DNA of 61,050 nucleotides, taken from positions 1-61,050 of IMG/VR virus record IMGVR_UViG_3300021141_000010; one strand, written 5' to 3'. Below the pieces are notes generated by a model. It searched no databases and was not told the origin of the DNA. It saw only the letters and a list, made by a program, of their open reading frames with translations. Position numbers and translations under genes: made by a program. This document shows positions 18,789-54,940 of this stretch, piece by piece; the first letter of the stretch is position 1, and each line of letters opens with the position of its first letter. The DNA is from a virus (Duplodnaviria > Caudoviricetes).

Positions 18789-18829
18789 ACCACCCATCAT
18801 TTGTTTACTCAGGTGATGGGTGGTTTTTT
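18789..18829 (+). terminator. Rho-independent terminator
   Basis: ACCACCCATCA/TGATGGGTGGT stem followed by a T-tract. Confidence 0.65.
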
Positions 18830-18861
18830 CATGTTTCTACGTTTGTAAAAGGGCAAAAGCA

Positions 18862-23907: not shown

Positions 23908-25100
23908 CCAAGTCCTTGCCCGTCGTCCCACTTTGCGGGACGTGCAAGGCAGACCGAACTTGCCAGCATCCAAAGCAGACTTGGCCGGGTAAACCGGCCA
24001 AAGTCGTCTTTGTGGTAGATAAAGCCGGTGACGATGCGCCGGATGCTCTTCTAGACGGGCAATTTGGTCGTTTAGGGACGGTTTGCAATCGCGTTGGCAT
24101 AACACTCGACGCTTACCCTAAAGTACCTGCGGCGGCCTGCCCAGGAGCCTCAAACGAGGCGTGGAGGCATTGCCAACCGCTTGTGGCGAGCGAACTCGCT
24201 CGCCTCAACCCCGAAGTCGTCATTCCCTACGGGCCGAGGGCCACGCAGTCGGTCATTGGTCGGTATTGGCAACAACCTGCCGAACTTTACGACCGATGGT
24301 ACGGCGCAGTGATCCCTTGCAGGGATCTTAACGCCTGGATCTGTCCGGTGGGCCTCATGGGCGAACACAAACGGATGCTCGACGTGTCGAGCATGTTTGA
24401 ATACAAGTACCTACGAGATGCGATGCGAATATCGGGCCGCCCGTGGCCCGATGGGTGCGTACCGCTAGACAGTCGAATCCAGCAGGTCTACCACGCCCAA
24501 GAGATCATCACCCAACTGGACAAGATCACCAAGACGGCTAAGATCGCGGCGTTCGACTACGAAACCACCGGGTTAAAGCCCGAATGGGACAACCAGCTAA
24601 TCGTGTCGATGTCGGTGGCATACGTCGCCGAAGGCGACGTGCATTGCATATCGTTCCCGGTATTCGCCGATACGCACGATGCGATCCGGCGATTCCTAGT
24701 ATCAGACATTCAGAAGATCGCTGCGAACATGAAGTTCGAGGATCGGTGGAGCCGATCCAAGCTGGGGGTTCAGGTTCGTCGGTGGTGGTGGGACACAATG
24801 CAGGCCGCACACTGGGAGAACCCCAATAGCGGCATCACGGGCTTGAAATTTCAAGCGTTTGCGAAGTTGGGCGTGCCTTACTTCGCTGATGATGTGGATT
24901 CATTTTTCGAGTCCGAGGAAAATTCTCAGCGAAACAAGATATTTTCGATTCCCACGCCAAAGCTCCTGACGTATAACGGGATGGATGCCATAGTCGAATT
25001 GCTGTTAGCATCGATGCAGATGGTCGAGAATGGCATCATCAAGGAACACTTTGTACCTAGTAAGTATCTACCAGCAAAATGCTCACAGAAATCCACCTGA
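23880..25100 (+). CDS. Degenerate family-4 UDG-like domain fused to a 3'-5' exonuclease (missing N-terminal half of PolA)
   Basis: CGTC..C, AAAC..HCQPLV..EL..LNPEVVIPYG (UDG4-like); ExoI AFDYETTGL, ExoII ANMKFED, ExoIII YNGMDA. Confidence 0.85.
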   Translation: MPLFASAKLTKSLPVVPLCGTCKADRTCQHPKQTWPGKPAKVVFVVDKAGDDAPDALLDGQFGRLGTVCNRVGITLDAYPKVPAAACPGASNEAWRHCQPLVASELARLNPEVVIPYGPRATQSVIGRYWQQPAELYDRWYGAVIPCRDLNAWICPVGLMGEHKRMLDVSSMFEYKYLRDAMRISGRPWPDGCVPLDSRIQQVYHAQEIITQLDKITKTAKIAAFDYETTGLKPEWDNQLIVSMSVAYVAEGDVHCISFPVFADTHDAIRRFLVSDIQKIAANMKFEDRWSRSKLGVQVRRWWWDTMQAAHWENPNSGITGLKFQAFAKLGVPYFADDVDSFFESEENSQRNKIFSIPTPKLLTYNGMDAIVELLLASMQMVENGIIKEHFVPSKYLPAKCSQKST

Positions 25101-26209
25101 CCAACTTCCAAGCTCATCGGTCACGATCATTGGCGTTCTCTCCTAATGTCAACGTCATCGTAGGCCCCACAAACGCAGGTAAATCGTCAGTCTTTCGTGC
25201 AATCCGTTGGCTTGTGGAACACAAGCCGATCACCGGATTGCAGACGTTTGACGAGCTTCATACCGAAGTGACCATCGCCTCTGAGAGAGGCGAGGTCACT
25301 CGATTCAAGCATCCATCCGAAGGGTACGGCTACAGAGTCGCCGGACAGGCCTTCGTGGCGTGCGCCACGAAGCAACCATCCGAAGTCCAAGCTACGCTTG
25401 GACTCTCGGAAATCAACCTGCAAGGACAGCACGATGCCCCATTCTTGCTGACGTTATCCCCCGGCCAGATGGCAAAGGAACTTAACCGAATCGTAGACTT
25501 GTCGATCATCGACAAGGCAAACGCAATGGCAGCTAGCAACGCCACCCGAACCAAAGGCGAACTTTCGGCGATGGAAACCATCGCCGAGAAGCAGAAAGCA
25601 GAACTCGACCAGATCGCCTGGGTTCCAGGCGTTCTGGCCCAGCATGAATCATTAGTAGTGTTTATGCAAGAGTTGCAGCATAAGCAAAGCCGATACACGC
25701 TGCTGTCTGACAAGACGCAGGTAATCGACGAGCTATCCAAGGCTCTGCTAGCATTAGAAAGTCTGATACTGGGCTTGCAAGCCTTGGCCGATCAGGCCAA
25801 GGATGTCGCCGACAAGCAGAGTCGCCGCAAGGCGATTCTTACGACGGTTGCACCTTTGGTCGACGTATCGGCTAAGATCAGTTTAGTTAATACTGTTGGA
25901 TCAGGATTAGCTAAACTGAAAAAGCAGGGCGAGCAGATCGCCGCCAAGCGATCTTGCTTGGCCACGATTCGATCAGTAGCCCAGCAGCTAGTCGCTATTA
26001 AGCCCATCGACGGAGACGTGGATGGGCTACTGGCAACGGGCAAGCGACTCGCGGAGTCGCGAGCCAAGCAGACCAAGTTAGTACGATTGATGTGGAGCGT
26101 TGCAGATTGGCAAGGAACTTATCGACTCGCTTGCCAATCCGTTATCGAGTTAGAAACCAAAATCAAATTAGTGAGGGAAGTATGCCCAACGTGCAAAAGA
26201 CCGCTCTAG
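25079..26209 (+). CDS. SbcC/Rad50-like ATPase, N-terminal half with zinc hook
   Basis: NFQAH, GPTNAGKS Walker A, QGQHD Q-loop, coiled coil, terminal CPTC. Confidence 0.88.
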   Translation: MLTEIHLTNFQAHRSRSLAFSPNVNVIVGPTNAGKSSVFRAIRWLVEHKPITGLQTFDELHTEVTIASERGEVTRFKHPSEGYGYRVAGQAFVACATKQPSEVQATLGLSEINLQGQHDAPFLLTLSPGQMAKELNRIVDLSIIDKANAMAASNATRTKGELSAMETIAEKQKAELDQIAWVPGVLAQHESLVVFMQELQHKQSRYTLLSDKTQVIDELSKALLALESLILGLQALADQAKDVADKQSRRKAILTTVAPLVDVSAKISLVNTVGSGLAKLKKQGEQIAAKRSCLATIRSVAQQLVAIKPIDGDVDGLLATGKRLAESRAKQTKLVRLMWSVADWQGTYRLACQSVIELETKIKLVREVCPTCKRPL

Positions 26210-27087
26210 CCATCCTGTGTTCGGATCTCCACTTGCGGGAAACTGCTCCGAGTGCCAGGGCTGAAAAGGATTGGTACGAGGTCATGGAGAACCACCTGAA
26301 CGCATTGGGGAAAGCATCATCTCGTTGGGGTGTTCCTATCGTCTGTGCCGGTGACGTGTTCGACCGATGGAACCCATCGAGCGAACTCGTCCGATTCGCG
26401 ATCCAGAAGCTACCCCCACTGAACGCTATTCCCGGCCAACACGATCTTCGCTACCACGACTACGAAAGTAGGCTCCGAGGAGCCTACGGATGTCTGGTCG
26501 CTGCGGAGATCCTATGGGATATACCCGTAGGTCGGTGGGATGGTGTCCCTGCCGAGATGGTGCAAGTGTGGGCCATGCCTTGGGGTAGGTGGGAGCCGCC
26601 GACCAAGGCTGAAAATTTCTATGGAATCAAGCTGGGAGTCCTGCACAAGTACGCATGGAGCAACCAGTTCAACTGCCACGCCAAAGCCGACGAGTCGTCT
26701 CGATTCGAGCGACTCTACCCCAACCTCGATGCTATGATTATCGGAGACAATCATATCCCTTGGATGCTACCCAACGTAATGAACCACGGCGGGTTCATTC
26801 CGCAGAACGCCGATCAGAAATCCTTAGTACCACACTATGGTGTTCTGATGTCTGACGGCTCCATCGAGAAGCATCCCTACGATGTTCCCGAGCCAATATG
26901 GCTCGAATCGTGGCAACCGCAGGTCGAGGAGTCCAAGATCGCTTCCGAGGTCATTCAAGAGTTGCAGGATCTCCAACACACTGGTGATTCATTCCTAGAA
27001 ACACTAGAGCGTTCCGTCGATGCTGCCCCGCCCCGAACTGCCCATATCCTTAGGCAGATGCTTGCAGATTTGAAACAAGATGGCTGA
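26182..27087 (+). CDS. SbcD/Mre11-like metallophosphoesterase nuclease
   Basis: SDLH, AGDVFD, PGQHD, LH, GDNH. Confidence 0.88.
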   Translation: MPNVQKTALAILCSDLHLRETAPSARAEKDWYEVMENHLNALGKASSRWGVPIVCAGDVFDRWNPSSELVRFAIQKLPPLNAIPGQHDLRYHDYESRLRGAYGCLVAAEILWDIPVGRWDGVPAEMVQVWAMPWGRWEPPTKAENFYGIKLGVLHKYAWSNQFNCHAKADESSRFERLYPNLDAMIIGDNHIPWMLPNVMNHGGFIPQNADQKSLVPHYGVLMSDGSIEKHPYDVPEPIWLESWQPQVEESKIASEVIQELQDLQHTGDSFLETLERSVDAAPPRTAHILRQMLADLKQDG

Positions 27088-27340
27088 TTTTGTCTGCGTA
27101 ATCTGTAAAAACTTGGTCTACCGTATTCCAGAAGTACCTAGCCCAGACGTACAATACATTGCCTGCCCCTACGGAGGGGCAGGCAATAAACCATGCACAC
27201 TGAAAGCCAGGAGAACCGATTGTGGACTATGCGGAAATTCAAAAGAAATTAGAGTCAGCCAAGACTCTGCGAACGAGGTTGGAGGGGCAGAAGGAGCAAC
27301 TACTCCGCAACCTCAAGGATCTCGGACACGAGACGATTGA
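27080..27340 (+). CDS. Small Cys-rich hypothetical protein
   Basis: CVIC..C..C..CGLC; overlaps the next ORF. Confidence 0.4.
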   Translation: MADFVCVICKNLVYRIPEVPSPDVQYIACPYGGAGNKPCTLKARRTDCGLCGNSKEIRVSQDSANEVGGAEGATTPQPQGSRTRDD

Positions 27341-27470
27341 GTCAGCGCAAGCAGAAATCACGGAACTCGAACAGTACATCGAAACCAATGAACCAGCTTT
27401 CAACCAACAGTGTGACGAATTTTTTGCGGCTAACCAAGATGCAATCAACGCTCTCGGTGGCCTCAAGTAA
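27222..27470 (+). CDS. Coiled-coil protein (probable middle SbcC fragment)
   Basis: RLEGQKEQLLRNLKDLGHETIESAQAEITELE heptads, located between SbcD and the SbcC C-half. Confidence 0.65.
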   Translation: MDYAEIQKKLESAKTLRTRLEGQKEQLLRNLKDLGHETIESAQAEITELEQYIETNEPAFNQQCDEFFAANQDAINALGGLK

Positions 27471-28002
27471 GCATAGGGCTGCCGTCATGGCGGTCGAAAG
27501 CAGCAAGTCGTCTATCGACGACTTGCGAGAACGATACGAAGCCGCCTTGGCGGCCAAAGAGATTATCCAACAAGTCAGCATGGAGTGCCAGGAGGCTTGC
27601 CAGAAACGCATCGGGTACGTTGTTACCCGATGTTTGCAGGCGGTGTTCCCTGACCAAGGGCTTACGTTTCGGCTCGTATTCGAGCAGAAACGGGGCCAGA
27701 CAGAAGTGCGCGGCGTCCTCGTCGATGCGGAAGGTCACGAGCTTGACCCCCTCCAATCGTGCGGCGGCGGAATTTTAGACGTGGCGGCTTTCGGCTTGCG
27801 GCTCGCTTGCCTTATGCTACAACGTCCTCAACCCGCTCGGGTTCTGATTCTGGACGAACCGTTCCGGTTCGTCTCGTCGCACTACCGCAGCAACGTCCGC
27901 GCACTACTGTCTGAGCTTTCACAGGAGATGGGTGTCCAGATCATCATGGTCACTCACATTGAAGAATTCATGGACTTCGATAGCAGATTGGAGATTGCGT
28001 AA
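27439..28002 (+). CDS. SbcC/Rad50-like ATPase, C-terminal half
   Basis: Signature SCGGG, Walker B LILDEP, H-loop MVTH. Confidence 0.87.
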   Translation: MQSTLSVASSKHRAAVMAVESSKSSIDDLRERYEAALAAKEIIQQVSMECQEACQKRIGYVVTRCLQAVFPDQGLTFRLVFEQKRGQTEVRGVLVDAEGHELDPLQSCGGGILDVAAFGLRLACLMLQRPQPARVLILDEPFRFVSSHYRSNVRALLSELSQEMGVQIIMVTHIEEFMDFDSRLEIA

Positions 28003-28408: not shown

Positions 28409-28862
28409 GAAAAAGAAAAACCCACCTGCCGAGATATATGTGTGCCACTGGTCGCCCGGCAAGCACCCTCCTATGGGATTCTATAGCTACAGAGCAGACC
28501 GAAAGATCAGGACGCAGGAGGAAGCCTACGCTTTGCAGCGTAGGCTTCTGAAAAAAGCCAAGAGGATGCTAGACGCGAAGCGTCCTTTGAACGCTTCGCA
28601 TTTCATGCAAGCTCTGCTAGCTATTGAGCCCGGTGCGTGGGTTCGCGAGTATGGCAGGGCGATCAGTAACACCCGAATGGTGTCGTTTAAGGCGCGGTCG
28701 GAGCAAACCCGCGACGAGATGCTCAGAACCGTAAACGACCTCAGCAAAGTCCATAATGTTGTAAGCTCTGTGGAGCAAAGAGATGGGTTTTTTATCCACA
28801 GTTACGAGGCCCACATGATACAGAAGACCATCAGGATTTACCCAAAGGAGTATTGCAAGTGA
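28398..28862 (+). CDS. Hypothetical protein
   Basis: 154-aa ORF in the operon. Confidence 0.55.
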   Translation: MMSKKKKNPPAEIYVCHWSPGKHPPMGFYSYRADRKIRTQEEAYALQRRLLKKAKRMLDAKRPLNASHFMQALLAIEPGAWVREYGRAISNTRMVSFKARSEQTRDEMLRTVNDLSKVHNVVSSVEQRDGFFIHSYEAHMIQKTIRIYPKEYCK

Positions 28863-29539
28863 CCAATAATCGCAAAATCTATACGATACACAACAACAAT
28901 CTTGGGGATCACTGGACGAGCTACTGTTTGATGGCTGTTGTAGGTGAAATGCATCAAACTCGATACGAACTCGGAACGATCAACGCAGGTTTCGACTTCG
29001 TAGATCGCCTTACGGAAATCGAAGCCTTGTTCAATCAGCATGTTCGTTATGCTCCGATCTTGGTACGCGAACAAGGTACGCACAAAATCGACGCTTGGTT
29101 GAATTGGTGCTTCCCGGCCTTGCCAGTAGATGCTGGGTTCCGTTGGGACATAATCAATGTGACCAAGACGGTATGCTATCAATTTGACGGCATATCTTCC
29201 GACACCCACAAGAATCCAGACGAACAGACAGCCTCGCAAATATTAAATTATTTCGAGGAGCTTGGGTACAGATGTATCCGTTTGGGCAAGCATATGAGTC
29301 TACAGGAAGTGTGCCTAAATCTATCGCAGTGTGCGTTGTTCGTGGGGTGCGACAGTGGCATAAGCCACGTCGCACACAGTGTGGGTTGTCCAGTATTTAT
29401 GTACGAGAAGCACCTACCCACCGAGACTTGCCATCGACTTAAGCAGTCAGATGTTTTTCGCAATTTATCAGAACTGAGAATGAAATCCCAGCACTGGCTT
29501 CAACTGCTAAGTATCGGCATGCGGCTTTCGACACCTTGA
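28853..29539 (+). CDS. GT9-like (heptosyltransferase-fold) glycosyltransferase
   Basis: N-terminal LGDH; SLQEV..LSQCALFVGCDSGISHVAHSVGCP. Confidence 0.75.
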   Translation: MQVTNNRKIYTIHNNNLGDHWTSYCLMAVVGEMHQTRYELGTINAGFDFVDRLTEIEALFNQHVRYAPILVREQGTHKIDAWLNWCFPALPVDAGFRWDIINVTKTVCYQFDGISSDTHKNPDEQTASQILNYFEELGYRCIRLGKHMSLQEVCLNLSQCALFVGCDSGISHVAHSVGCPVFMYEKHLPTETCHRLKQSDVFRNLSELRMKSQHWLQLLSIGMRLSTP

Positions 29540-29562
29540 CCCGGCCAAGAGTAAGACGGCAG

Positions 29563-31590
29563 CTAGCCGCATAGCCCTGCGGCTTCGTCCTTCTCAGCTT
29601 TGCTGATTGCGCGAAGCACGACTAGTTTCACAACCGGACGCACGAATAAGCCACCGAGGTTTCTCTTGGTGGCTTCTTCGTTTAGCCAGTCCAGAATTAG
29701 CTCAAGATTATCTCTACACCACTGAACGCCTTGGGAATCCATTATCCTCGCTCTTTGATTACAAGAGCAGTTTGGCGTTGCTTCGATGCCTATCTTTTTG
29801 AGCCATGCCTTAAGGTTGGTTCCACAACCACAAGGCTTGCCTTCCTTGTCGGTCTTGGGCCAAGGCTTCGTCTCATTTTCCGGGCGATCCTCAGGCACGC
29901 GAGAGAGTACGGTCATGCCGTACTGCTTGTCATTATGCTCGGCGACGAACCATTCTGGACTCGCAGCGATAAAACTCTTGATGGCCCACCAGAGTCCCTT
30001 GGTATCCCCTTCGCCGACCAGTCCGTAAGTTGCTGTGTCGTGAATCATGATCCGCTTGCGGATCTTCGGAGCATAGGTGGTTAGCTCTTGCAATAATCGC
30101 TCGCCTGTATGGCGGGTGTCAAGAAACAAGAAATCCCCCTCGGGGATTTCTCGAACCATCTCATCGTGGTTCGCCTTTGTCACAGTGTACGACAAAGGCC
30201 GACCGGCGTGATTTCGCACCAAATCTTGGAGAATCTGAATGAGCGAGTCATCCTCCTCTTGCCAAGAGAACACCTCGGCGACCTTTTGACAACTCTTGGA
30301 GCATTGCCCGTCTCCGCAAGTAGGCTTCGAGCATGTTTTACGCCCCATAGCTGCGAGCAAGAAAGCAGAGCTTTCTCGCCGTTCGGTGAGTTCGATAGCG
30401 GCATCGCACCCAATTGTCCAACGCATGAATGCGTTGATATGCTGGTCAAGATCCCGAGGGTTCTTGACTAGGAACTCTGCAACATCGCCTAGCGATGTTG
30501 CGGCGGTAGGTAGTAGCATTCCGAGGTTGGATTTGTAGAGCGCGTCTAAGGCTACGGGGGCGGCCTTATTTTGGACGAACGGAGTGAAGTTCTTGGGGTC
30601 GGAAGCAATCATGTCGTACTGAGCTTGTGGAACCCCAACTTCGTCTACGAAGTGCTTGCGGATAGGCTCAGTGTCCATCCCAAGTTCCTTGTACCCAAGC
30701 AGGTAGTTCCTGACCTTCCCTTCCATCGTCAGCGGGTACTTCGGCCCGCCGACTCTGCCGAATCGGTGGTTCCACTTGAGGAACGGAAGACAGATTGTCT
30801 TCCGGCCCGCCGCTCGGTACTTGCGGTGGATGTAGCATTCCTCGCCACCGAACATGCGGAAGTCGGGATTGAATCCTAGCCAATGCTCCTTCGACGAGCA
30901 GAAGAGTCCCAAGCCCTGCGCCGGGATCTCGAACGGCGGGTCGTTCGAGTCGAACCCGGCCACCTTGTAGCCTCGGCCCATCAATGCGTGTTCGTGGCCT
31001 GCAAATGGCACGTCCAGGACGTGCCATTCTCCGAGGCCCTCGGGATGGAGTTTACGAATCTGGAGTTTCCCATCGGCGGTTTGCCCTGTCACCACAAGAA
31101 CCCCGTCTGGATGCCACCAAGCCGTCGCCCAAGTGCCTTCCATCTGGTCGCGGAAGACGCACTCGAAGTGGGTCGAAACGAACGAGAGGCCGTCATATAA
31201 AAGAGGGCCGGTGAAAAGATTCTTTTGCATCTCTTCATCCGAATTGGTAAGGAATTCCCGTAAGCGGTGAATTCCGTTCGCTTGGAGGAACACATGGGGA
31301 TCCGTCACCATGACATACTGCCCTTCCGCTTCGCGGAAGAGTCGTTCGCGGGTCTGAGTCGTCCCTGACGACTCCGTGTGGGCGATGTACCGAACTTTGT
31401 CCTTGGCCGATAGGCTCTGGACAAAGTTTCGGGTATGGGTTCCGTGTTCGCTGTCGGGGTTGTTGTCGAGGACGATGAACTCGCAATCCCGAGCGGTGTC
31501 CTGGTACATTCGGTGCGCCTGCACCGAAAAGTACACGCCGTCGAAGTCATCGTAAGTCGCCATGGCGATGGTAAGGAAGGGCTTGGTCAT
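29563..31590 (-). CDS. GT-A glycosyltransferase (GT2/GT27-like) + class I SAM methyltransferase-like domain + Cys-rich C-terminal domain
   Basis: LTIAMATYDD, IVLDNN, VTDPH, GLGLF, FGGEE, NHRF; DFLFLDTRH..QEL..IMIHDT; GCGT.LK..CSC..RA.MD. Confidence 0.82.
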   Translation of the reverse strand: MTKPFLTIAMATYDDFDGVYFSVQAHRMYQDTARDCEFIVLDNNPDSEHGTHTRNFVQSLSAKDKVRYIAHTESSGTTQTRERLFREAEGQYVMVTDPHVFLQANGIHRLREFLTNSDEEMQKNLFTGPLLYDGLSFVSTHFECVFRDQMEGTWATAWWHPDGVLVVTGQTADGKLQIRKLHPEGLGEWHVLDVPFAGHEHALMGRGYKVAGFDSNDPPFEIPAQGLGLFCSSKEHWLGFNPDFRMFGGEECYIHRKYRAAGRKTICLPFLKWNHRFGRVGGPKYPLTMEGKVRNYLLGYKELGMDTEPIRKHFVDEVGVPQAQYDMIASDPKNFTPFVQNKAAPVALDALYKSNLGMLLPTAATSLGDVAEFLVKNPRDLDQHINAFMRWTIGCDAAIELTERRESSAFLLAAMGRKTCSKPTCGDGQCSKSCQKVAEVFSWQEEDDSLIQILQDLVRNHAGRPLSYTVTKANHDEMVREIPEGDFLFLDTRHTGERLLQELTTYAPKIRKRIMIHDTATYGLVGEGDTKGLWWAIKSFIAASPEWFVAEHNDKQYGMTVLSRVPEDRPENETKPWPKTDKEGKPCGCGTNLKAWLKKIGIEATPNCSCNQRARIMDSQGVQWCRDNLELILDWLNEEATKRNLGGLFVRPVVKLVVLRAISKAEKDEAAGLCG

Positions 31591-31668
31591 TTATTTGTTC
31601 CCGCTGAAATGGAAAGAGACATCCTGATTCTACAGGATGTCTCTAAGTCAGCAAAATTTGTGAGATAG

Positions 31669-34600
31669 TTATGGGAACAACGGAGGTGATAAAGTCACCG
31701 ACGTTGTGGGTGCAATTGTGGTCGTCGTCGTGGTCGGCCCACACGGGAAGGATGCCTGGGCACACGTCTCATTTGCTACCCAATACCCGCTGGCCCGGTC
31801 GCACCAGGACTCAGTCTGGCCGCTGGCACAGAGCGAGTATTCAGTACCAAAACAACATCGCCCAAGCGGAACAGGCGTGGTGGTCGTCGTAGTGCCGCAC
31901 ACATCTGCCGGAGAGCAAGAAGCACCTTGAGTCCATCCCAGAACTTGATATTGGGGGACGCTAGGGAAGTTGTAAAAATCACATTCTGCTTGAGTAAGAC
32001 CTTCTGTACAAAAGATACCCCCCGACTCAACTGCTCTTAGGCAACACCTACCGGTCGGAGGCAATGTCGTTGTCGTGGTAGTAGTGAAAGATGGGCATGT
32101 AAACGAATCGCAGTTCTGGTTAGCATACCAGACACTAGCTAGCCGCAACGAACAGTCCGCCTGCGTCTCGGTGGCGCAGAAGGTGGAGCCGCCAGAAGGG
32201 TAGCAACATGCGCCGGTAGGTACAGGCGTAGTTGGACAATCCGCAGTTTCGCAAGTGCTTCCGGGGCCTTGGGGCGATCCATATCTGGCGATGCATTGTT
32301 GAGGGGTAAGCATCTCGCAAGCGGCATCGAGGAAGCAGCAAGCCTGAGGAGCGACTGTCGTGCCAGTCGTTGTGGACGTAGATGTCTGCGTGGTAGGAAG
32401 TACGGATCCGCAGGTGTACCTGCGGATCTCACAGTCGGACGCACTAAGAGTCGGCGGATATGCTGGACAGGGGCAAGTCGACGGGCATGGGTCGTCGATT
32501 TTAACCCAGCCGCCGATAAGATTGCCTCTGAATGTGCATTGCTTGTCGCAAGGCTGAGTTGTGCAACAAGCACACGGTTCGATAGACCTAAACTGACAGC
32601 CAGTCTCTACCAAGTCGCAAATACTCGCAGGCGGCGTAGCTGGTGGGTAGCAACCACAACAACACGGATTATCTTCTAGCACATTAGTACATCCCGGAGA
32701 GTACCCGCCGATGTTGGGCCAAGATCCGTGTGGCGGGCATTTACATCCAGAGACTCCGTTACGGACTGGGAAACACCCGTCGTTCATACCTACAGTTTTT
32801 TGCCATCTCAATGTAGATCCGTACCCGTCCTCATACACTGCGTACCACATGCAAGATCCTTCGCAAGACGTGCATAAATTGGACGGCGTTGTTCCTGGAC
32901 GAACGCAACTCCCAGAAACGATAGTCCCGCATGGCGGCGATGTGGATGGGTACGACAACACACAGTTGCATCCTGGTTGGCATGTGCTTACTGGCACATA
33001 TCCGCGACCTGTGAGGTACTGAGATGAGCAAGATCCCGAGCAGGGAGCAAGCGTAGTCGATGTGGTGCTTGAACCGCAGTTGCATTCCTGGTTGTACGTT
33101 GTGTCATAACACACAAACTGACCAGGAGCCCCAGTAGTTGTTGGGCATGTTATGCCCACCATACTCGCACCGCCTGGGCGACAGACGGTTCGCACACAAT
33201 CAGAGGCGGACACAGGGCAAAACGTAGGAGGCTCACATCCGCACGGGACAGGAGTAGTAGATGTTGTGGACGTTGTGGACGTTGTGGACGTTGTTGTGGT
33301 GTTTTGGTTGATCGGCAGGTAGTCGTTCAGCGGTGACGACTCACACGTCTCGCAGGGAGGCCCAGGCACGCATGGGGACTCAAATAGGTAAACACCTATC
33401 GGGGATTCTGTCACCCCGTTGACAAACACATCTTGATAGTATATGAACTTTGGCGGACTGGCTGACGGTCTAGTCCCAGCAGGGCAACTTTGGCATTGTA
33501 TCCAATTACCAGCGAACTTTTCCCCATCCTCAAACAATAAAGCCTCTGAGCCGTATCGCCCTCCCCAGTAGAACACTTGATCAGCATAGCCAAAAGCCTT
33601 AAAGCCTGCATAGCCCGTGCTGAATTCAGAGTCGTCGAGCGCGCATGGAGAGGCCACGCATGGGGTGTCGTGTATCATCACCCACGAGGTAGGCCCAGGA
33701 TCAAAAGCGGCAACGCTACCTACCTTTAGCAATGGTACTTGGCCTGTTGGGCAATCTTGGCAGATCGCCCAACCACCGACGCCGCCTTTCCATATGGCGG
33801 CTCTGTACTCGCCGGGGATCGCGGGGACTACGGAGGCTGCCAATGAGCAAGCCTCTTCTCCCGGAGCCGGGGTAGTTGTGGTCGTGCTAGTAGTGCTGGT
33901 CGTCGTGGAGACTACGAGACACTGGCTAAGGACTTCGCCTTCCTCTAGAAAACATGGATCTCCAACCCCGTAGCATGAGCAAGGCTCCGTGCATGGGAAG
34001 TTGTACAGATCGCTTACGACCACATAACGCAGTGATGGCTGCCACGATTGGGGCCAGCTTGTAGTTGTCGTGGACGTGCTGCCAGACGGGCTGCCAGTGG
34101 TCGTAGTGACGGGCATGCATCGAAGCCTACAAGGCGTGTACGAACACGGCGCGGGGGTTGTGCTTGTTGTGGTGGTGCTTGAGGTGGTCGTACTCGTTGT
34201 GGTCGTGGTGGTCGTGCTTGAGGTGGTCGTATTGGAACACCCGCCTTGCGGGGGTTTCCAAACCAAACCGCCTAACCCAAACCCAGCAGTGAATATGCAC
34301 TCACCTTGGCACACGGGTCTGGGCGATATGTCTGGGGGCTGTGTAGACGTAGTCGAGGAAGACGAGGCTACCTCCTGCGGTCGCTCATTTGTCCAATAAC
34401 CATTCTTATGCCTAAAGACTTGTACGAAGTCGGTAGTTGTTAAGGCATAATAGTTGTAGACCAGGACTTTCACTGGCAGATCAATGCCGTCCAGAACTGG
34501 GATCAGCTTCTTCTGGGCTTCATCTAATTTGAACAGGCAGCACACGGCTTCGCCTGGAAACACCTCACCGTCTTCTCGGGTTGCGGCAGGTAGTCCTGTC

Positions 34601-34761
34601 TCACATGGCGGTAAAGCCCAGTACGCATCCGGTGCGGTTTGGAAGTTTCTGTTAGTCGGAGGGAGCATCGACGGGGGTGGTGCGGATCGTACCGCCTCGA
34701 CTAACCCCTTGACGACCTTCAGACCTTCTTTAGTTAGCGTGTAGAATTTATTTTGAGTCAT
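31669..34761 (-). CDS. Mucin-like Cys/Thr-rich putative tail fibre or adhesin (1030 aa)
   Basis: Tail-fibre position downstream of the tape measure; about 87 Cys by hand count; many poly-Thr/Ser tracts; four C-terminal 6-Cys (G/Q)(A/R)CC repeats. Confidence 0.7.
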   Translation of the reverse strand: MTQNKFYTLTKEGLKVVKGLVEAVRSAPPPSMLPPTNRNFQTAPDAYWALPPCETGLPAATREDGEVFPGEAVCCLFKLDEAQKKLIPVLDGIDLPVKVLVYNYYALTTTDFVQVFRHKNGYWTNERPQEVASSSSTTSTQPPDISPRPVCQGECIFTAGFGLGGLVWKPPQGGCSNTTTSSTTTTTTTSTTTSSTTTTSTTPAPCSYTPCRLRCMPVTTTTGSPSGSTSTTTTSWPQSWQPSLRYVVVSDLYNFPCTEPCSCYGVGDPCFLEEGEVLSQCLVVSTTTSTTSTTTTTPAPGEEACSLAASVVPAIPGEYRAAIWKGGVGGWAICQDCPTGQVPLLKVGSVAAFDPGPTSWVMIHDTPCVASPCALDDSEFSTGYAGFKAFGYADQVFYWGGRYGSEALLFEDGEKFAGNWIQCQSCPAGTRPSASPPKFIYYQDVFVNGVTESPIGVYLFESPCVPGPPCETCESSPLNDYLPINQNTTTTSTTSTTSTTSTTPVPCGCEPPTFCPVSASDCVRTVCRPGGASMVGITCPTTTGAPGQFVCYDTTYNQECNCGSSTTSTTLAPCSGSCSSQYLTGRGYVPVSTCQPGCNCVLSYPSTSPPCGTIVSGSCVRPGTTPSNLCTSCEGSCMWYAVYEDGYGSTLRWQKTVGMNDGCFPVRNGVSGCKCPPHGSWPNIGGYSPGCTNVLEDNPCCCGCYPPATPPASICDLVETGCQFRSIEPCACCTTQPCDKQCTFRGNLIGGWVKIDDPCPSTCPCPAYPPTLSASDCEIRRYTCGSVLPTTQTSTSTTTGTTVAPQACCFLDAACEMLTPQQCIARYGSPQGPGSTCETADCPTTPVPTGACCYPSGGSTFCATETQADCSLRLASVWYANQNCDSFTCPSFTTTTTTTLPPTGRCCLRAVESGGIFCTEGLTQAECDFYNFPSVPQYQVLGWTQGASCSPADVCGTTTTTTPVPLGRCCFGTEYSLCASGQTESWCDRASGYWVANETCAQASFPCGPTTTTTTIAPTTSVTLSPPLFP

Positions 34762-35216
34762 AGGGGGAAGGCCGAGATATGCAAAATGGAGGTAGATCGT
34801 GTGGAAGACGCATACAGCTTCCCACTGAACTGTCCATACATCATCCGCTCTGGCCCTATTGTACCGACTAATCCCGATTCGTTGTAAATTTCAATTACGT
34901 TCATCTTCTGCTGGCTTTCCAGCAATTCATTTTTCTGTTGCAGTTGCGGGACTTTGTGTCCCAGAAGCAGTTCGTAAGCCTCGCAAGACTCTGGGAGAAT
35001 GATCTCCTTTTTCTCACCTGGGTTAATTTTGATATTTTGTTGCTGGGATGCGTATTTGGACGGAACTAATCGGTCGCACGCCCATCGAGCAACGGTCGTT
35101 TGCCCAGTCTCGAACTCAAGGTAATGGCCCTGGACAACCAGGGTAAACCTATCGTCGTTTATGGTTTTTGGAGTGCCTTGGGTGGTCAAAAATTGCTCTT
35201 CGTTTCTATGCGTCAT
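34758..35216 (-). CDS. Hypothetical tail-region protein
   Basis: ATGA-coupled in the tail operon. Confidence 0.65.
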   Translation of the reverse strand: MTHRNEEQFLTTQGTPKTINDDRFTLVVQGHYLEFETGQTTVARWACDRLVPSKYASQQQNIKINPGEKKEIILPESCEAYELLLGHKVPQLQQKNELLESQQKMNVIEIYNESGLVGTIGPERMMYGQFSGKLYASSTRSTSILHISAFPL

Positions 35217-36124
35217 GGTATGAGTGTGGTTGGGATCCCGAGAAGTAGTAGATTGGCCTCTTTTGGAATTCTCAGCGTCTGGATGTAGACATCTTCTTCG
35301 TTATCCACAGCCTCCCCAGAGGAATTGAGGAAAACAACTTCCATGTTCTCTCCCTTGCTGTCCTTTGCAATTACGAAGTCCTCTGCCTTGGTTCCAAGTG
35401 TCCCTTCCTTTTTAATCTTCATCCCCATTGCTGGCACTTTTTTATCGAAAGTTTCCAGATTGCATTCAAAGGTGTATGTGACTTTGTAGTAGTAGAAGCA
35501 TGACCCATACAACACACGCTCCCATTTCGCATCCGTAAAGCGTACACACCTAGAAGGAAGACCCCAAAGGGGTGCGTCGTTGACTTTGTTTATGAGTAGC
35601 ACATAAGTGCTGAGCGGCAGGACGCCGGTGTTAAAGCCGATTGTGACCGAAGGGTAGCTGATCTTGTCTTCAACTTCGGGGCCGGTGATCGGCTCAAAGT
35701 TCGGGTGTCGGAGAGGCATGCCGTCCTTGTCCACCTTCATTTCGCGACTGACGTGAACAAAGTCACCAGAAAGAGTGAACGGCTCAAGGAGCGGGTTGTC
35801 GATGGGCGGGAACATGCATCTCGACATCGGCTTGGTGGTGTACTTCGTACTGACCATCCAATCCAACGTAGGCTCGCCTTCCTCGACATCTCGGTGTACC
35901 GAGATGGAGAGTTCAGGCGTGCGAAACGCCCACGGATCGTAGTCATTGTCGATAGCATATGCAGTGCCTAGCGGGGGCAGTTGCGTATTGACCGCCGCCA
36001 AAACCATCTCCGGCCCATCGAGATACGAATTGGTTCGGAATTGCCATATGACATCGTAGGTTCTATGACCTTCTTCATCACGAGCCATGCTCTGGTTTTT
36101 TAGTCCGACTAGGTATGCTGTCAT
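35213..36124 (-). CDS. Putative distal tail/hub protein
   Basis: Immediately downstream of the tape measure; beta-rich; GGAG SD. Confidence 0.6.
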   Translation of the reverse strand: MTAYLVGLKNQSMARDEEGHRTYDVIWQFRTNSYLDGPEMVLAAVNTQLPPLGTAYAIDNDYDPWAFRTPELSISVHRDVEEGEPTLDWMVSTKYTTKPMSRCMFPPIDNPLLEPFTLSGDFVHVSREMKVDKDGMPLRHPNFEPITGPEVEDKISYPSVTIGFNTGVLPLSTYVLLINKVNDAPLWGLPSRCVRFTDAKWERVLYGSCFYYYKVTYTFECNLETFDKKVPAMGMKIKKEGTLGTKAEDFVIAKDSKGENMEVVFLNSSGEAVDNEEDVYIQTLRIPKEANLLLLGIPTTLIP

Positions 36125-36133
36125 AAAGATCTC

Positions 36134-39100
36134 CTAAAGGTCGAGTTCTGCGACTTCCATAGGTTTCTGCTGTGTGTTTTTCTCAATCCGCTGTAGGATT
36201 TGATTGGCTTTGTTCTGTGCTTGCAATTTCGGATCGGATGTCGCGGCCTTCATACCTCGCATTCTATCCATGTACTCAGCCATCCTCTTTGTGTAGTCGC
36301 CGCTGTGGACAGACATAGCATCCTGTACTTTGTAGTCGCTTCCTTTTGTGCCCGTTTTTGTGCCTTTGGCATCTGGTTGGATAGCAGCAAACATAGCCGC
36401 AGCATCCGTAGGTGCTTCGGGTATTGCCAACTCTGGGGGCTCAGGGGGCTTTTGAGCCTCGGGAACTTTGAGATTCAGATTCATTTCGGGGGATGAGAAC
36501 TCGACTCCTTCGAGCCCCGTTTTGATTTTGCCTGTCTCTTCGTTTATGATCGTCTTAGCGGCTTCAAAAAATCCGTCCTCGCGAGTCTTTGCAACGTCCC
36601 CCGAAAGGGTGTCCATAAAACTTGTGATCGCTTTGGTTCCTTTGCCCCATTCTGAAGGTGAGGTAATGAATTTCCATACTCGTTTACCGGCATCCAGAAT
36701 TCGCATGAACACGTCTTTCACGAAATCCATTGCGGCTGAGAAAGCATTTTTAATTGCTTTGGGCAAATAGTCTATTAACCATGTTCCGAAGGCAACGGTG
36801 AGTCGTAGCCCCATTCTCCACATGACTAGGATGTTTCCGGGGACAGCCATAAAGAACCCACCAAGGATTTTACCTAAATCCGAAAACATCGAACGCCAGT
36901 TCTCATAAACATACTTGGCAATGATGCCTGCGTTCTCTGCGAAGTTGTAAAAGAAACCATAGGCGGCTTGTGCAAACCACTGCATAGTTTCCCAAATCTT
37001 GGTTATCGCCCCAGAAATTCCGCCTGCACCCTGCAATGCGTTCATCACAGCAAAAATACCAGCTACGACCAATCCAATGCCGCCGACTATTAACGGGATC
37101 GGCCCTAAAAAAGACATCCAAGCGAATATTGAAACCAATCGAAATCCATTCATCATCCGCACGAGCAAACCTATAGCACCGCCAGTCCTAACCGCACCCA
37201 TTAGTCCAGTAGCGGCATTTTGGAGCATCGCAAATGTGGACAGTGCGACTACGACTGCCAGTTGTCTGAAGTATTCGAGAAGGCCCACAGAACGGATGGT
37301 CTGGTAAGATAATGCCAAAAATCTCCCGACAGCAGAGTTTCGCAACATTGCTATCGTGTTGATCGCAAGAGCCCTTGCGTTGCCCAATATGCTAGTGGTG
37401 AAGTAGACCATGCCTCTATAGGCAGCCGCAATCGCCCTATCCATCATGAGCGTGACTGTATTGTATATCTGAGTCATAACAGTGACCATACGCAACGCAC
37501 CGGCGAATACGACACCAGCATACTGGGCTACATATGCCATTGATTGAAACAATACAATGACAGGTGTCAAGACTACTCGCAGTCCGTACAACACAGAAAC
37601 AGCACTATGCAACCACCAACGAACACTGGCCACAGCCAATCCGAGCATGTGGAAGGCGGCTATAAAGGCTACGACTTTGACAACAAAATCAACTATTCTT
37701 GCGGCGGCCTCTCGATTATTTTTTATCCAATCTTGGAGCATTTTGACATATACAATAGCAGTTTTTAGGGCATCTTTAAGCCTAGCATCCAGCACATCCA
37801 TGACAGACAGCTTCATCTCCAGAAACATCTCAGATAATCGACTAGTTAGACCGCCCACCTCTTTCGACATCCTGTTGAGAAGATCAGCGAAGTAGCCACC
37901 TTTAGAAGTCTCCACTTCTAGAGCCTTCGCGAAATGCTCAGATGTTACCAGACCTTGCTCTTTGGCTAGTGTGATTTCTTTGATCCGCTGTTTGAGTTCA
38001 TCGTCAGTGAACCCAGGCTTCAGCGATGCTCTAGCCATCGTAACCAGCGGATTGAACCCATGCTCGGCTAGCTGATTTAAATCTTGTTGCATCAATTTGC
38101 CTTTGGTCATAATCTGAGAGAAGACCAAAGACAGTCGGCTTAGCCGCTCCTGACTACCACCGGCAACGACCCCTAGTCTTTTAATAGCATCGGTAGCCAT
38201 ATCGACAGCAACGCCGCGACCCATCATATTCTTAGTCTCCTCAGCGATGCCTGCCATGCTATATGGAGTCTGTTGAGCGTATTGCATCAAGTCCCCCATA
38301 ACAGCGTTAGCCTTCGCAGCATCTCGCGTAAACACTTCGATACCTGCACTCGCCGCCTTGAAGTTGGCGTATACGTCAAGCATGCCCTTGCCGGACTGCA
38401 CGAGGCTACTCAACGCATTGGCATGCATATAGATATCAGCACGCGCGCCCATACCTCCCATGCCGCCACCGCCTACAGCGTTTCCGCCTCCCGCAGCGTT
38501 GCCGCCACCGCCACCGCCACCGCCACCGCCACCGCCACCGCCACCGCCGCCTACAGCGTTTCCGAATTGGTTTTGCATGTTATTGAGCATGTTGTTCACA
38601 TGCCTAGTCATCTGTCTCGTGAATCTTGTGACCATCGGTTGGATGTTCACCGTATTAGTAGCTACTTGAAAGCTGTTTTGCATCATTTGTAAAACAGCTT
38701 GTAGCGTAGACTGCAAGATGACTCTAAGTCTAGCTCGCACCATGGGCACATACATGACGCGAGTAAGCATGGCGAGAGCGGCTGTGCTTATAGTATTCTG
38801 TGTGACCTGTAGGATGGTGTGCAGCACTACCTGTACGGCTTGTCTTATGGTGGCGTTTATTCGGCCGGAGCCCGCAGGCCGGATATTGTGGGCATTGACT
38901 ACAAGTAACCGAATGTAGCGAAGCAGAGAGTGTTCGACCACATGGATAGCTTGACGAATCGTAGTGTTCACACGACCCGCTCCCGATGACCGGATATTGT
39001 GCGCGTTCACCACCATCAGCCGAATGTATCGAAGCACGCTGTGCAGCACGACATCGACAGCTTGTCGAATAGTAGAATTAACCCTAGCGGAGCCGGAGGG

Positions 39101-39673
39101 TCGTATAGAATTAGTCTTTGCCACCAGACCGTTTGTCAAATTGATCAGGACATCCGTAATGGCGGCTAGGGACGCCTTGATCTGCTTGTTGATCTTAGTC
39201 GTAGAGACATTTATTTTGTTAGATGTAGCAACCAAACCTTGGATTGCGCGGAGCAGATCCCGTTCGAGCAGATCAACGGCGTTCTGCATAGCCATCTTCA
39301 CAGCATTCGCTGCTTTACTCACGCTTGGGGTTGCAAATTTCTTTGCTGCATCATTTACCGCATCGACCAAGGATTTTTCTATGGCTTTTGTGGCATTCTT
39401 TATCGAATCCGTAACCCCTTTATGTTTTATTTGGATCGTGTGGATCTGACCGACCAGAGACTGTGCAGCTTGTTTAAGGCCCCGTTCGATCAAATCCACA
39501 GAGTTCTTGACCGCCATCTTCACAGCATTCGCAGACGCTTTCTGCGAAGCTACCTTATCGATAGAGTCTTGGAGACGCTTGGCCTTATCTTCAACATCCT
39601 TGATCGCCTTATCAAATTTCTTGCTATCGGCGACGATTCGGACGCGAATTGGAGGTAGTTCTCGATCTGCCAT
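36134..39673 (-). CDS. Tape measure protein
   Basis: 1179 aa; tape_meas core AQQTPYS..LGVVAGG..QIMTKGKL..DLNQL; hydrophobic stretches; follows the chaperone pair. Confidence 0.9.
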   Translation of the reverse strand: MADRELPPIRVRIVADSKKFDKAIKDVEDKAKRLQDSIDKVASQKASANAVKMAVKNSVDLIERGLKQAAQSLVGQIHTIQIKHKGVTDSIKNATKAIEKSLVDAVNDAAKKFATPSVSKAANAVKMAMQNAVDLLERDLLRAIQGLVATSNKINVSTTKINKQIKASLAAITDVLINLTNGLVAKTNSIRPSGSARVNSTIRQAVDVVLHSVLRYIRLMVVNAHNIRSSGAGRVNTTIRQAIHVVEHSLLRYIRLLVVNAHNIRPAGSGRINATIRQAVQVVLHTILQVTQNTISTAALAMLTRVMYVPMVRARLRVILQSTLQAVLQMMQNSFQVATNTVNIQPMVTRFTRQMTRHVNNMLNNMQNQFGNAVGGGGGGGGGGGGGGGGGNAAGGGNAVGGGGMGGMGARADIYMHANALSSLVQSGKGMLDVYANFKAASAGIEVFTRDAAKANAVMGDLMQYAQQTPYSMAGIAEETKNMMGRGVAVDMATDAIKRLGVVAGGSQERLSRLSLVFSQIMTKGKLMQQDLNQLAEHGFNPLVTMARASLKPGFTDDELKQRIKEITLAKEQGLVTSEHFAKALEVETSKGGYFADLLNRMSKEVGGLTSRLSEMFLEMKLSVMDVLDARLKDALKTAIVYVKMLQDWIKNNREAAARIVDFVVKVVAFIAAFHMLGLAVASVRWWLHSAVSVLYGLRVVLTPVIVLFQSMAYVAQYAGVVFAGALRMVTVMTQIYNTVTLMMDRAIAAAYRGMVYFTTSILGNARALAINTIAMLRNSAVGRFLALSYQTIRSVGLLEYFRQLAVVVALSTFAMLQNAATGLMGAVRTGGAIGLLVRMMNGFRLVSIFAWMSFLGPIPLIVGGIGLVVAGIFAVMNALQGAGGISGAITKIWETMQWFAQAAYGFFYNFAENAGIIAKYVYENWRSMFSDLGKILGGFFMAVPGNILVMWRMGLRLTVAFGTWLIDYLPKAIKNAFSAAMDFVKDVFMRILDAGKRVWKFITSPSEWGKGTKAITSFMDTLSGDVAKTREDGFFEAAKTIINEETGKIKTGLEGVEFSSPEMNLNLKVPEAQKPPEPPELAIPEAPTDAAAMFAAIQPDAKGTKTGTKGSDYKVQDAMSVHSGDYTKRMAEYMDRMRGMKAATSDPKLQAQNKANQILQRIEKNTQQKPMEVAELDL
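38461..38560 (-). repeat. (GGCGGT)n poly-Gly tract in the tape measure
   Basis: ccgccaccgcca tandem on + strand; GNAVG(n)-NAAGGG-NAVGGGG. Confidence 0.85.
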
Positions 39674-40421: not shown

Positions 40422-40886
40422 TTACGGAGCAGGCGTCGTGGTTGTGGTCGTGGTTGTAACCACGTTTGCAAGCACAGGCCCGATTTCTGCTGGGGTAGCG
40501 GCAGTTGACAAGTTACTTGGAATGAGTTCCAAAGTAGCCTGAGGACGCTCACCTTCTTTGAGAGCATCCGGCGTGAATTTATTCACGACGGCATAGAATG
40601 TGAAAGTCGCACCGTCTGGGAATGTGATGACGATTTGACGATTCGACCCGAGAATGTTCTGCATCTGCGGGATGACATTTGAATCATATGCTACCACAAC
40701 CGAAATGGTTCCCAGAGTAACCAACTTCTTACCGAGGTTGGTTCGGTAGCGACCATTTCGCATCGTGGTCTGGTCAATAACTCCGTTGGCATCCAATTCG
40801 GGTGGGGTTACTTCGATTTCCTCGAAAAGCGCAGTAATCCCGGTGATCGCAATGAGTGTCTTGAACCCGTCTGTTAGCTTTGCCAT
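40422..40886 (-). CDS. Major tail tube protein with C-terminal poly-Thr tail
   Basis: VTPPELD..IDQTTM..VITFPDGATFTF; ends VVTTTTTTTPAP. Confidence 0.8.
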   Translation of the reverse strand: MAKLTDGFKTLIAITGITALFEEIEVTPPELDANGVIDQTTMRNGRYRTNLGKKLVTLGTISVVVAYDSNVIPQMQNILGSNRQIVITFPDGATFTFYAVVNKFTPDALKEGERPQATLELIPSNLSTAATPAEIGPVLANVVTTTTTTTTPAP

Positions 40887-54869: not shown

Positions 54870-54940
54870 AAAATAGCCCTGTAGACAAAAACCTGATACC
54901 CAGTAAGATACCATTAGTTCTTTTAATTCACAAGGATTCT

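Follow-up and report, generated by a model that had tools for sequence, protein, structure and literature searches.

Does a tailed phage attach sugars to the Thr-rich tracts of its own virion proteins, and with which enzyme would it do so? This question is raised by three adjacent genes in a linear viral record (IMG/VR record IMGVR_UViG_3300021141_000010; 61,050 bases, called here the window), which is siphovirus-like and by estimate ~80% complete. A first-pass annotation of this DNA had proposed a mucin-type O-glycosylation system composed of a GT27-like transferase, a mucin-like virion protein, and a GT9-like enzyme. The three open reading frames (ORFs) on which it was based are present, encoding proteins of 228 amino acids (aa) (28853-29539, + strand), 675 aa (29563-31590, − strand), and 1030 aa (31669-34761, − strand). 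From the results described below we consider it probable that they belong to a system by which the phage O-glycosylates Thr tracts of its own virion proteins and methylates the attached glycan.

The glycosyltransferase domain has a GT27-like fold

The 675-aa protein (29563..31590, − strand) is a fusion of a GT-A glycosyltransferase domain, an O-methyltransferase domain, and a small C-terminal Cys/helical domain. The GT-A domain comprises aa 1-340 (30571..31590, − strand), and an AlphaFold2 (AF2) model of aa 1-345 was obtained with a predicted local distance difference test score (pLDDT) of 93.5 and a predicted template modeling score (pTM) of 0.91. When this model was compared with the PDB using Foldseek, the matches listed to rank 50 were all polypeptide N-acetylgalactosaminyltransferases (ppGalNAc-transferases) of family GT27, with a best E value of 2.8e-13; those listed include human T2, T4, T7, T10, and T12, mouse T1, Drosophila PGANT9, and Toxoplasma T3. 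VIA-align, an all-against-representatives structural search that is independent of Foldseek, placed mouse GalNAc-T1 first (Z 23.2, rmsd [root mean square deviation] 3.2, 261 aligned residues) and Toxoplasma GalNAc-T3 second (Z 21.8), followed below GT27 by K4CP (17.9), AvpGT (17.2), RmlT (16.8), TarS (16.4), and SpsA (15.8). Eukaryotic GT27 enzymes (GalNAc-T1, T2, T7, and Toxoplasma GalNAc-T3) are thus the best structural match in two independent searches. In the comparison of GT27 with GT2 that the first-pass annotation had named in advance as a check, the fold groups with GT27 and not with lipid- or polysaccharide-acting GT2 enzymes. Bacterial GT2 enzymes (TarP, TarS, SpsA, K4CP, heparosan synthase) have the GT-A fold in common with the phage enzyme, whose N-terminal half matches PF00535 and TarP/TarS, but they carry a DxD motif, use polyol phosphate or polysaccharide acceptors, lie 4 to 8 Z units under GT27, and are not linked to Thr-tract proteins.

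The motifs quoted in the first-pass annotation were all found in the 675-aa translation, which contains RERLFREAEGQYVMVTDPH, IPAQGLGLF, FNPDFRMFGGEE, GRKTICLP, and WNHRF. The sequence DPH, i.e., D97-x-H99 (31294..31302, − strand), is a candidate metal-binding DxH motif, and FGGEE at aa 247-251 (30838..30852, − strand), in which F247, G248, E250, and E251 are invariant, is the counterpart of the Gal/GalNAc-T motif. H275 within WNHRF (30766..30768, − strand), invariant together with W273 and F277, is a candidate distal metal-binding His. A word-indexed search yielded 431 relatives of the enzyme at an E value of ≤1e-3, most of them 650 to 700 aa long and located on phage-sized contigs. The motifs go beyond chance: in alignments of 32 and of 37 homologs, with identities as low as 33%, D97, H99, G248, E250, E251, and H275 never vary. 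Further invariant residues in the same two alignments are D15, D42, R81, G128, P129, H141, G226, G228, F230, F247, H255, W273, F277, N295, and Y296, and in a core alignment of 34 sequences D97 and H99 are likewise invariant, as are W273, H275, and F277. Judged from these alignments, the DxH motif, the FGGEE loop, and the WxH motif are the conserved core of the enzyme family.

In GT27 as in the phage enzyme, a DxH motif instead of DxD is followed by an (F/W)GGE(E/N) loop and then by a distal His. A profile of the core, which runs from the DxH motif through 30 residues beyond the distal His and was built from the 34 sequences, had a sole match below an E value of 1 among the PDB sequences, namely human GalNAc-T7 (E 0.056). 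The HMMER alignment reproduced the motif order given in the first-pass annotation: PAQGLGLF was aligned to PAMAGGLF, FGGEE to WGGEN, CLP to FVP, and the His of WLH (H275) to the His of VGH. The last residue of the invariant FGGEE motif is Glu, not Asn, and Pfam Glyco_transf_7C was matched by 1 of 32 family members. Pfam GT2 (PF00535) was matched by aa 10-116 of the enzyme (E 2.3e-6; 28.1 bits versus a cutoff of 23.3) and by all 32 aligned members; the PF00535 model is broad and also covers GT27 catalytic domains.

By sequence, the relation to GT27 is distant. A phmmer search with the whole enzyme against PDB sequences gave nothing useful, and neither phmmer nor the full and core profiles revealed significant similarity to GT27 in the PDB. 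The phage enzyme differs from GT27 also in that it has no membrane anchor: no hydrophobic 19-residue segment reached a score of 1.6, the maximum being 1.54 at aa 645. A ricin-type lectin domain was not found in the C-terminal half, which is occupied by the O-methyltransferase and helical Cys domains. When the core profile was run against 1.84 billion cluster representatives, 1,564 proteins (clusters counted at 50% identity) were recovered at an E value of ≤1e-3, and 1,429 of them at ≤1e-10; the family is therefore sharply bounded and is not itself a fringe of GT27 or general GT2. What stands of the proposed GT27-like transferase are its fold and its motifs; membership of GT27 by sequence is not demonstrated, and by sequence the enzymes form a discrete family. 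A viral structure library contained one close relative, from an uncultured phage.

Within the family, the long forms of the GT-A domain contain a β-hairpin insert of ~55 to 70 aa between the DxH motif and PAQG (aa 157-215 in the window enzyme, ~31000-31120, − strand). The insert is missing from viral forms that consist of the glycosyltransferase only and from most cellular forms, and the core accordingly measures 171 aa compared with 222 to 248 aa. In one homolog, P0083, an unrelated N-terminal region precedes two copies of the GT-A domain.

The C-terminal half is an O-methyltransferase followed by a Cys/helical domain

The AF2 model of aa 346-675 had a pLDDT of 93.0. Its top Foldseek matches were cation-dependent O-methyltransferases, namely an Anaplasma O-methyltransferase (E 2.4e-6), PaMTH1, MeT1 of Mycobacterium hassiacum, which we take to be a sugar O-methyltransferase, and COMT. 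In Pfam searches the C-terminal half of the window enzyme matched Methyltransf_24 and CmcI below the cutoffs (18.3 and 13.6 bits, respectively). Across the 32 aligned members, Methyltransf_24 was found in 18 (best E 2e-6) and RMNT_CmcI (rhamnosyl O-methyltransferase/CmcI) in 14 (best E 5.3e-6). A Rossmann-type fold and a family match together identify a class I S-adenosylmethionine- and cation-dependent O-methyltransferase domain at approximately aa 367-563 (29902..30492, − strand).

The remaining ~90 aa form a helical domain with conserved Cys residues and no Pfam family (29566..29838, − strand), recognized from the alignment and the AF2 model. G588, G590, C608, C610, and C625 are nearly invariant in this domain, which sits where GT27 has its lectin domain. 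In the homologs P0108 and P0115 it is replaced by DUF6171.

The proposed acceptors are a Cys-rich tail protein and the tail tube

The proposed main acceptor is the 1030-aa protein encoded directly upstream of the enzyme on the same strand (31669..34761, −). The first-pass annotation had described it as Cys-knot modules separated by Thr/Ser/Pro tracts; the knots are putative, but the alternation of modules and tracts is borne out: the protein contains 14.8% Thr, 10.4% Pro, and 8.4% Cys, and ten Thr/Ser tracts of 6 to 25 residues each lie between Cys-rich modules of 3 to 30 Cys. Seven of the ten tracts are directly followed by x-[A/V/P]-P (PAP, PVP, LAP, LPP, or IAP), and an eighth reaches AP four residues on. 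An origin of the tracts by DNA slippage or as a simple DNA repeat was rejected, as their Thr codons are mixed (26 ACG, 21 ACC, 20 ACA, and 12 ACT).

The Cys modules matched no Pfam, PHROG, or NCBIfam model, and the C-terminal half of the protein had only 16 relatives in the homolog search, all unannotated. The N-terminal ~130 aa are conserved in distant loci and the remainder varies; an Atlas search with the N-terminal 135 aa gave scores of ≤0.81, which is chance level. Because of this conserved N terminus, the divergence of the rest, and the position of the gene on the same strand after the tape measure gene, the 303-aa gene, and the 152-aa gene, the protein is probably a fiber or receptor-binding protein, which would place it in the virion.

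The second proposed acceptor is the 154-aa major tail (tube) protein (40422..40886, − strand; phrog_158, E 1.3e-5), whose gene is flanked by the genes for the tail terminator and the tape measure. The protein ends with a run of eight Thr and then PAP, 11 residues in all (40425-40457). A six-frame scan of the window for Thr tracts followed by x-x-P gave 8 occurrences in the 1030-aa ORF, the one terminating the tube protein, and none elsewhere.

Thr tracts accompany the enzyme across viral lineages

Pattern scans recovered 286 relatives of the enzyme from viral contigs and 302 from bacterial and archaeal genome contigs, and 80 and 78 loci, respectively, were examined. In 58 of the 74 viral loci having an upstream neighbor, the gene directly upstream of the enzyme had at least 7 Thr in some 10-residue window. 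The background, taken from the other genes of all 158 loci (viral and genome), was 43 of 2,097 (2%). In 70 of 75 viral loci, a co-oriented poly-Thr ORF ended ≤3.5 kb upstream of the enzyme; the co-occurrence of enzyme and Thr-tract protein across related viral contigs, a second check named in advance by the first-pass annotation, thus came out in its favor. Two of the five misses, L054 and L071, are ORF-calling artifacts in which the tract gene is present; L073 and L077 have only short Thr runs before x-x-P, and in L052 the tract gene is located downstream.

After clustering of the enzymes at 60% identity, a poly-Thr partner was found in 30 of 33 testable clusters. Distant partners contain Calx-beta, PKD, InlB B-repeat, NHL, or no known domains and have Cys contents of 0.2% to 16%; they are not one homologous family. 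The possibility that the adjacency reflects only the shared ancestry of close relatives is weakened by the 30 of 33 clusters and the nonhomologous partners.

A second regularity concerns the residues around the tracts. In 726 tracts from 138 nonidentical poly-Thr ORFs, all from loci of the enzyme family, Pro was present at position +3 after the last Thr/Ser in 70%, compared with 21% at +1, 20% at +2, 7% at +4, and 9% in these proteins overall. Pro immediately preceded 43% of the tracts. Per enzyme cluster the median frequency of Pro at +3 was 0.75, and it was at least 0.5 in 25 of 29 clusters. An excerpt of a study of GalNAc-transferases (bioRxiv 10.1101/2020.06.25.171371) gives their sequon as T/S-P-x-P, with the Pro at +3 bound in a conserved pocket, and states that GalNAc-T2 favors Thr, Pro, Ala, or Ser at −1. 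The presumed phage acceptors, Thr tracts with Pro at +3, match this sequon, which would be in line with retaining GalNAc transfer to Ser/Thr.

The tube protein allowed a further comparison. A tube profile search gave 44 loci, 16 of which extended 10 kb downstream. In 13 of the 13 such loci with a Thr-tailed tube, this region encoded the enzyme and a large poly-Thr protein; in the 3 loci with a tube lacking the Thr tail, it contained neither the enzyme nor any poly-Thr ORF. The enzyme profile also had no match in the whole records of five relatives without the tail, one of which is complete with terminal repeats. Other lineages independently show this Thr-tail habit, with 29 tracts ending within six residues of a C terminus. 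In locus L080, three unrelated small proteins (2513-2950, 4276-4755, and 12132-12575) end in Thr runs, so that this phage may tag several components of its virion.

In genome contigs, full-length fusions occur mostly in metagenome-assembled genomes (MAGs) of Planctomycetota. A Pirellulales prophage (L090) shows the gene order minor tail protein, poly-Thr gene, enzyme, GT9-like gene, and integrase. Six other genome-contig loci (L098, L133, L136, L144, L150, and L152; Alphaproteobacteria, Arenicellales, and others) encode a DxH GT-A domain at the C terminus of TPR/GT25/GT2 proteins and have no Thr-tract neighbor.

The GT9-like gene occupies a variable position

The 228-aa protein encoded by the gene converging on the enzyme (28853..29539, + strand) is a GT9-like glycosyltransferase and a candidate second-step enzyme. 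It matched PF01075 with an E value of 4.3e-8 (33.2 bits versus a cutoff of 22), with only aa 123-197 aligned, and NCBIfam gave weak matches to heptosyltransferases and to the Aah/TibC family (E 0.014), far below the equivalog cutoffs. It is ~100 aa shorter than the heptosyltransferases of lipopolysaccharide synthesis. Similar Atlas clusters are mostly viral and GT9-like, some of them automatically named as Aah/TibC family members, names that serve as leads only.

GT9-like homologs directly beside the enzyme were found in L001, L002, L016, L017, and L019, which are related phages with the same convergent layout. In prophage L090 the GT9-like gene comes after the enzyme gene and shares its orientation. 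The slot downstream of the enzyme, occupied in 71 viral loci, held a second GT2 gene in 22 of them (two clusters, of 20 and 2), a further Methyltransf_24 gene in 10 (clusters of 9 and 1), and a GT9-like gene in 5. Thus, the GT9-like enzyme of the proposed system exists and converges on the pair, but it is an occasional and not a constant partner, occurring in 5 of 71 viral loci and one prophage. Because the slot is filled by a GT2, Methyltransf_24, or GT9-like gene in different loci, we read it as a variable second-step position, which would fit glycan diversification. That the GT9-like protein extends the glycan is a guess; a protein O-transferase function like that of Aah/TibC is just as conceivable, and less likely its gene belongs to the replication block. 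In a Schlesneria MAG (L097:5735-9787), a 1350-aa protein with a GT9 domain and several methyltransferase domains is encoded directly upstream of a cellular GT-A/methyltransferase homolog; the GT9 association is therefore not confined to phages.

Proposed mechanism

The earlier proposal that Thr tracts of the virion are glycosylated and the glycan methylated has gained a Thr-tailed tube, the covariation of tube and enzyme, the Pro at +3, and a folded O-methyltransferase domain, and it came through each computational test that was applied. Glycosylation itself is what we infer from these findings, and the identity of the sugar, the stereochemistry of transfer, the order of steps, and the benefit to the phage are conditional in the following scheme. 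The 675-aa enzyme, which is predicted to be soluble, would work in the cytoplasm of the host late in infection, not in the Golgi as GT27 does. Its N-terminal GT-A domain, with a putative metal site formed by D97, H99, and H275 and with the FGGEE loop, would use a nucleotide sugar of the host as donor and transfer its sugar to the Thr hydroxyls of T(n)-x-x-P tracts. Sugar-nucleotide synthesis genes were not found among the 51 ORFs of the window scanned against Pfam, and the donor must therefore be host derived. Acceptor sites would be present in the 1030-aa tail protein (its ten tracts) and on each tube subunit (its C-terminal tail). The fused O-methyltransferase domain would then methylate the attached sugar, and the product of the variable neighbor gene, GT9-like here and a second GT2 or a methyltransferase in relatives, might add or modify a further residue. 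The predicted outcome is a mucin-like, methylated glycan coat on the tail.

Weighing of the proposed system against alternatives

Several points weigh against this scheme. The phage is uncultivated and known here from its sequence alone, and a tblastn search with the enzyme against 50,697 GenBank phage records gave no match. Within the PDB the full enzyme profile matched only the N-terminal halves of GT2 enzymes, namely TarP (E 4.4e-5) and TarS, and NCBIfam gave weak sub-threshold matches to EpsD and TuaG. The alignment to GalNAc-T7, at an E value of 0.056, is not significant alone and at most suggests a relation. The C-terminal helix at aa 645, with its score of 1.54, falls just below the membrane threshold, and the second acidic residue of FGGEE, by comparison with GT7, presumably allows an inverting mechanism, unlike GT27. 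On the comparative side, the raw locus counts overstate independence because many loci are close relatives, and the control for the tube covariation consists of 3 loci only, with all Thr-tailed tubes belonging to one clade. In genome contigs a poly-Thr neighbor was found for only 27 of 63 homologs, and many of the remaining homologs are fused to TPR, GT25, or other GT2 domains; the enzyme family therefore also works in other settings.

Some of these points are shared by an alternative in which the enzyme is cargo (a "moron") that modifies a host envelope glycan, a lipid-linked sugar, or a polysaccharide, the Thr tracts being mere flexible linkers in adhesin-like fibers. Ends of tail modules, where the enzyme gene lies, are a common site of unrelated cargo. 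The sequence matches are only to generic GT2 enzymes, those of wall teichoic acid and exopolysaccharide synthesis, the TPR, GT25, and GT2 domains fused to cellular homologs are typical of glycan assembly, and 36 of 63 genome loci have no poly-Thr neighbor. We nevertheless regard this explanation as unlikely, since the enzyme has no membrane segment and, by fold, peptide transferases are its closest match with a margin of 4 to 5 Z units. Moreover, linkers alone do not account for the Pro fixed at +3, for Thr tails on tubes that covary with the enzyme, or for the linkage with nonhomologous Thr-tract proteins in 30 of 33 clusters.

According to a second alternative, the tracts are glycosylated by host enzymes, or by the GT9-like protein in the manner of Aah/TibC, and the GT-A/methyltransferase fusion only elaborates the glycan. 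The weak NCBIfam match of the 228-aa protein to Aah/TibC heptosyltransferases (E 0.014) and the viral Atlas clusters automatically named after this family, which are leads only, speak for it, and O-glycosylation and methylation of the S-layer by a planctomycete host are described in an excerpt of PMC5088730. Of the 71 viral loci with a downstream neighbor, however, only 5 have the GT9-like gene, as does L090, whereas the GT-A enzyme almost always accompanies the tracts, and T-x-x-P fits a GalNAc-T-like groove. We therefore judge this course of events to be quite improbable.

That one or both transferases act on phage DNA in base hypermodification and not on protein is very improbable despite a thymidylate-synthase-family enzyme, a dNMP kinase, MazG, and a 5' nucleotidase in the window, the position of the GT9-like gene as the last of the replication-side + strand block, and the DNA-glycosylating phage transferases cited in an excerpt of PMC12619734. 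Against this reading, in all related loci the GT-A gene adjoins the tail module and is read in its direction, and action on DNA would leave the Thr tracts and the sequon unexplained. The fold is closest to that of peptide transferases, and prophage L090 carries the GT9-like gene behind the GT-A gene in the same orientation, with no replication block there.

Comparison with known glycosylation systems

Excerpts of three papers (PMC11600133, PMC12619734, and PMC12363180) describe phage-particle glycosylation so far only in mycobacteriophages. In these excerpts Che8, Corndog, and Myrna carry glycans on the C termini of capsid and tube subunits, and in cluster O phages an O-methyltransferase gene is followed by three transferase genes. 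To the extent of these sources, the window resembles the mycobacteriophages in having phage-encoded transferases beside virion genes, which act there on capsid and tube C termini. Corndog gp35 matches TylF and Methyltransf_24, gp37 is weakly GT2-like, and gp38 matches GT25; an O-methyltransferase of the Methyltransf_24 type next to transferases is thus a further likeness, the two being separate there and fused here. The C termini of the Corndog capsid and tube proteins are not Thr tracts. An hhalign comparison of the enzyme profile with Corndog gp36 and gp38 gave a probability of <1%, i.e., no similarity, and together with the tblastn search of the 50,697 phage records revealed no homology of the enzyme to mycobacteriophage transferases. 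Hosts of mycobacteriophages are Actinobacteria, whereas relatives of the window enzyme occur in Planctomycetota and other phyla. The logic of glycosylation is shared with mycobacteriophages, and the enzyme family and acceptor code are different. The abstract of Freeman et al. 2023, on mycobacteriophage virion glycosylation, is said to report little evidence for it among other phages.

The window probably represents this known kind of practice, and what is new are the enzyme family and the acceptor code. In a limited literature collection on phage virion glycosylation, phage GT27, Thr-rich tails, and bacterial ppGalNAc-T homologs, we found neither a description of the enzyme family nor, in agreement with the first-pass annotation, a described phage pairing of a ppGalNAc-T-like enzyme with a mucin-like substrate. 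Compared with GT27, the phage enzyme is distinguished by its fusion to an O-methyltransferase and by long forms with the hairpin insert. A multidomain glycosyltransferase plus methyltransferase that builds the glycan of a virus's own structural protein, the capsid protein, is A064R of chlorovirus PBCV-1; it differs in that the virus is eukaryotic, the glycans are N-linked, and the transferase family is another. With respect to the sugar, an excerpt of PMC5088730 describes a planctomycete S-layer protein with GalNAc-rich, methylated O-glycans, which makes a methylated N-acetylhexosamine a reasonable guess, and no more, for phages of Planctomycetota.

We tentatively raise the possibility, doubtful as it is, that the family is the prokaryotic-virus counterpart of GT27, perhaps its sister group or source, and would be a lectin-less cytoplasmic Thr-O-glycosyltransferase reading T-x-x-P via a proline pocket. 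If so, the initiation of mucin-type O-glycosylation would not be a eukaryotic invention, and phages and prophages of Planctomycetota, Chloroflexota, and other phyla would widely coat their tails and fibers with methylated glycans. The module, with 286 viral and 302 genomic relatives and 1,564 clusters, suggests that virion glycosylation is widespread in uncultivated phages. Its enzyme family differs from those of known phage systems, its nearest structural relatives are the mucin-initiating enzymes of animals, and its acceptor code, a Thr tract followed by x-x-Pro, appears readable. Confirmation would provide a soluble enzyme from the bacterial world for site-directed Thr glycosylation and a handle on the origin of GT27. 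Glycan shields would then be expected on phage tails, where they could affect adsorption, stability, recognition by host defense, and the proteomic detection of virion proteins.

Other features of the window

Pfam and PHROG matches identify a siphovirus-type structural module on the − strand, extending from ~55 kb to 29.5 kb. It includes genes for the terminase large subunit (53451-54914), the portal (51931-53454), a protease-like protein (50450-51769), an HK97-type capsid protein (48914-49990), a 706-aa fiber-like protein with tandem repeats (42443-44563), the tail terminator (40890-41282), and the tape measure (36134-39673; TMP_3, E 3.3e-20; phrog_9959, E 2.5e-26), followed by the 303-aa gene (35213-36124; syntenic in 31 loci) and the 152-aa gene (34758-35216; syntenic in 20 loci), all on the − strand. 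The 675-aa enzyme, the 1030-aa protein, the GT9-like protein, and the products of the 303-aa and 152-aa genes had no match in PHROGs, and no tRNA gene was found in the 61,050-base window. The 706-aa protein contains four or five tandem units of ~35 aa (YIDTEVAAIKAKTDNLPVDPADASDIAASF); it also has a single short run of Thr and a weakly matched CarboxypepD_reg domain. In the tape measure protein we observed a run of ~17 Gly (approximately aa 380-420) and three internal repeats of ~38 aa, IRPSGS/AGRVN..TIRQA (aa 190-290).

Genes for replication and nucleotide metabolism form a block on the + strand between 2 and 29.5 kb, with the GT9-like gene as its last member. A family A DNA polymerase is seemingly split between two + strand ORFs ~8.5 kb apart (13873-15237 and 23814-25100), with matches to the polymerase domain PF00476 (E 2.6e-49) and the 3'-5' exonuclease domain PF01612 (E 4.2e-4). 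An SMC/Rad50-like ATPase is apparently distributed over an N-terminal and a C-terminal ORF (AAA_23/SMC_N and AAA_21), between which lies an ORF for a calcineurin-like (Mre11/SbcD-type) phosphoesterase (25079-26209, 26092-27087, and 27337-28002, + strand). The thymidylate-synthase-family enzyme (E 2.8e-103), MazG, the dNMP kinase, and the 5' nucleotidase are encoded at 3660-4520 (− strand) and at 8752-9144, 15201-15806, and 18820-19392 (+ strand), a set that is sometimes linked to modified DNA bases.

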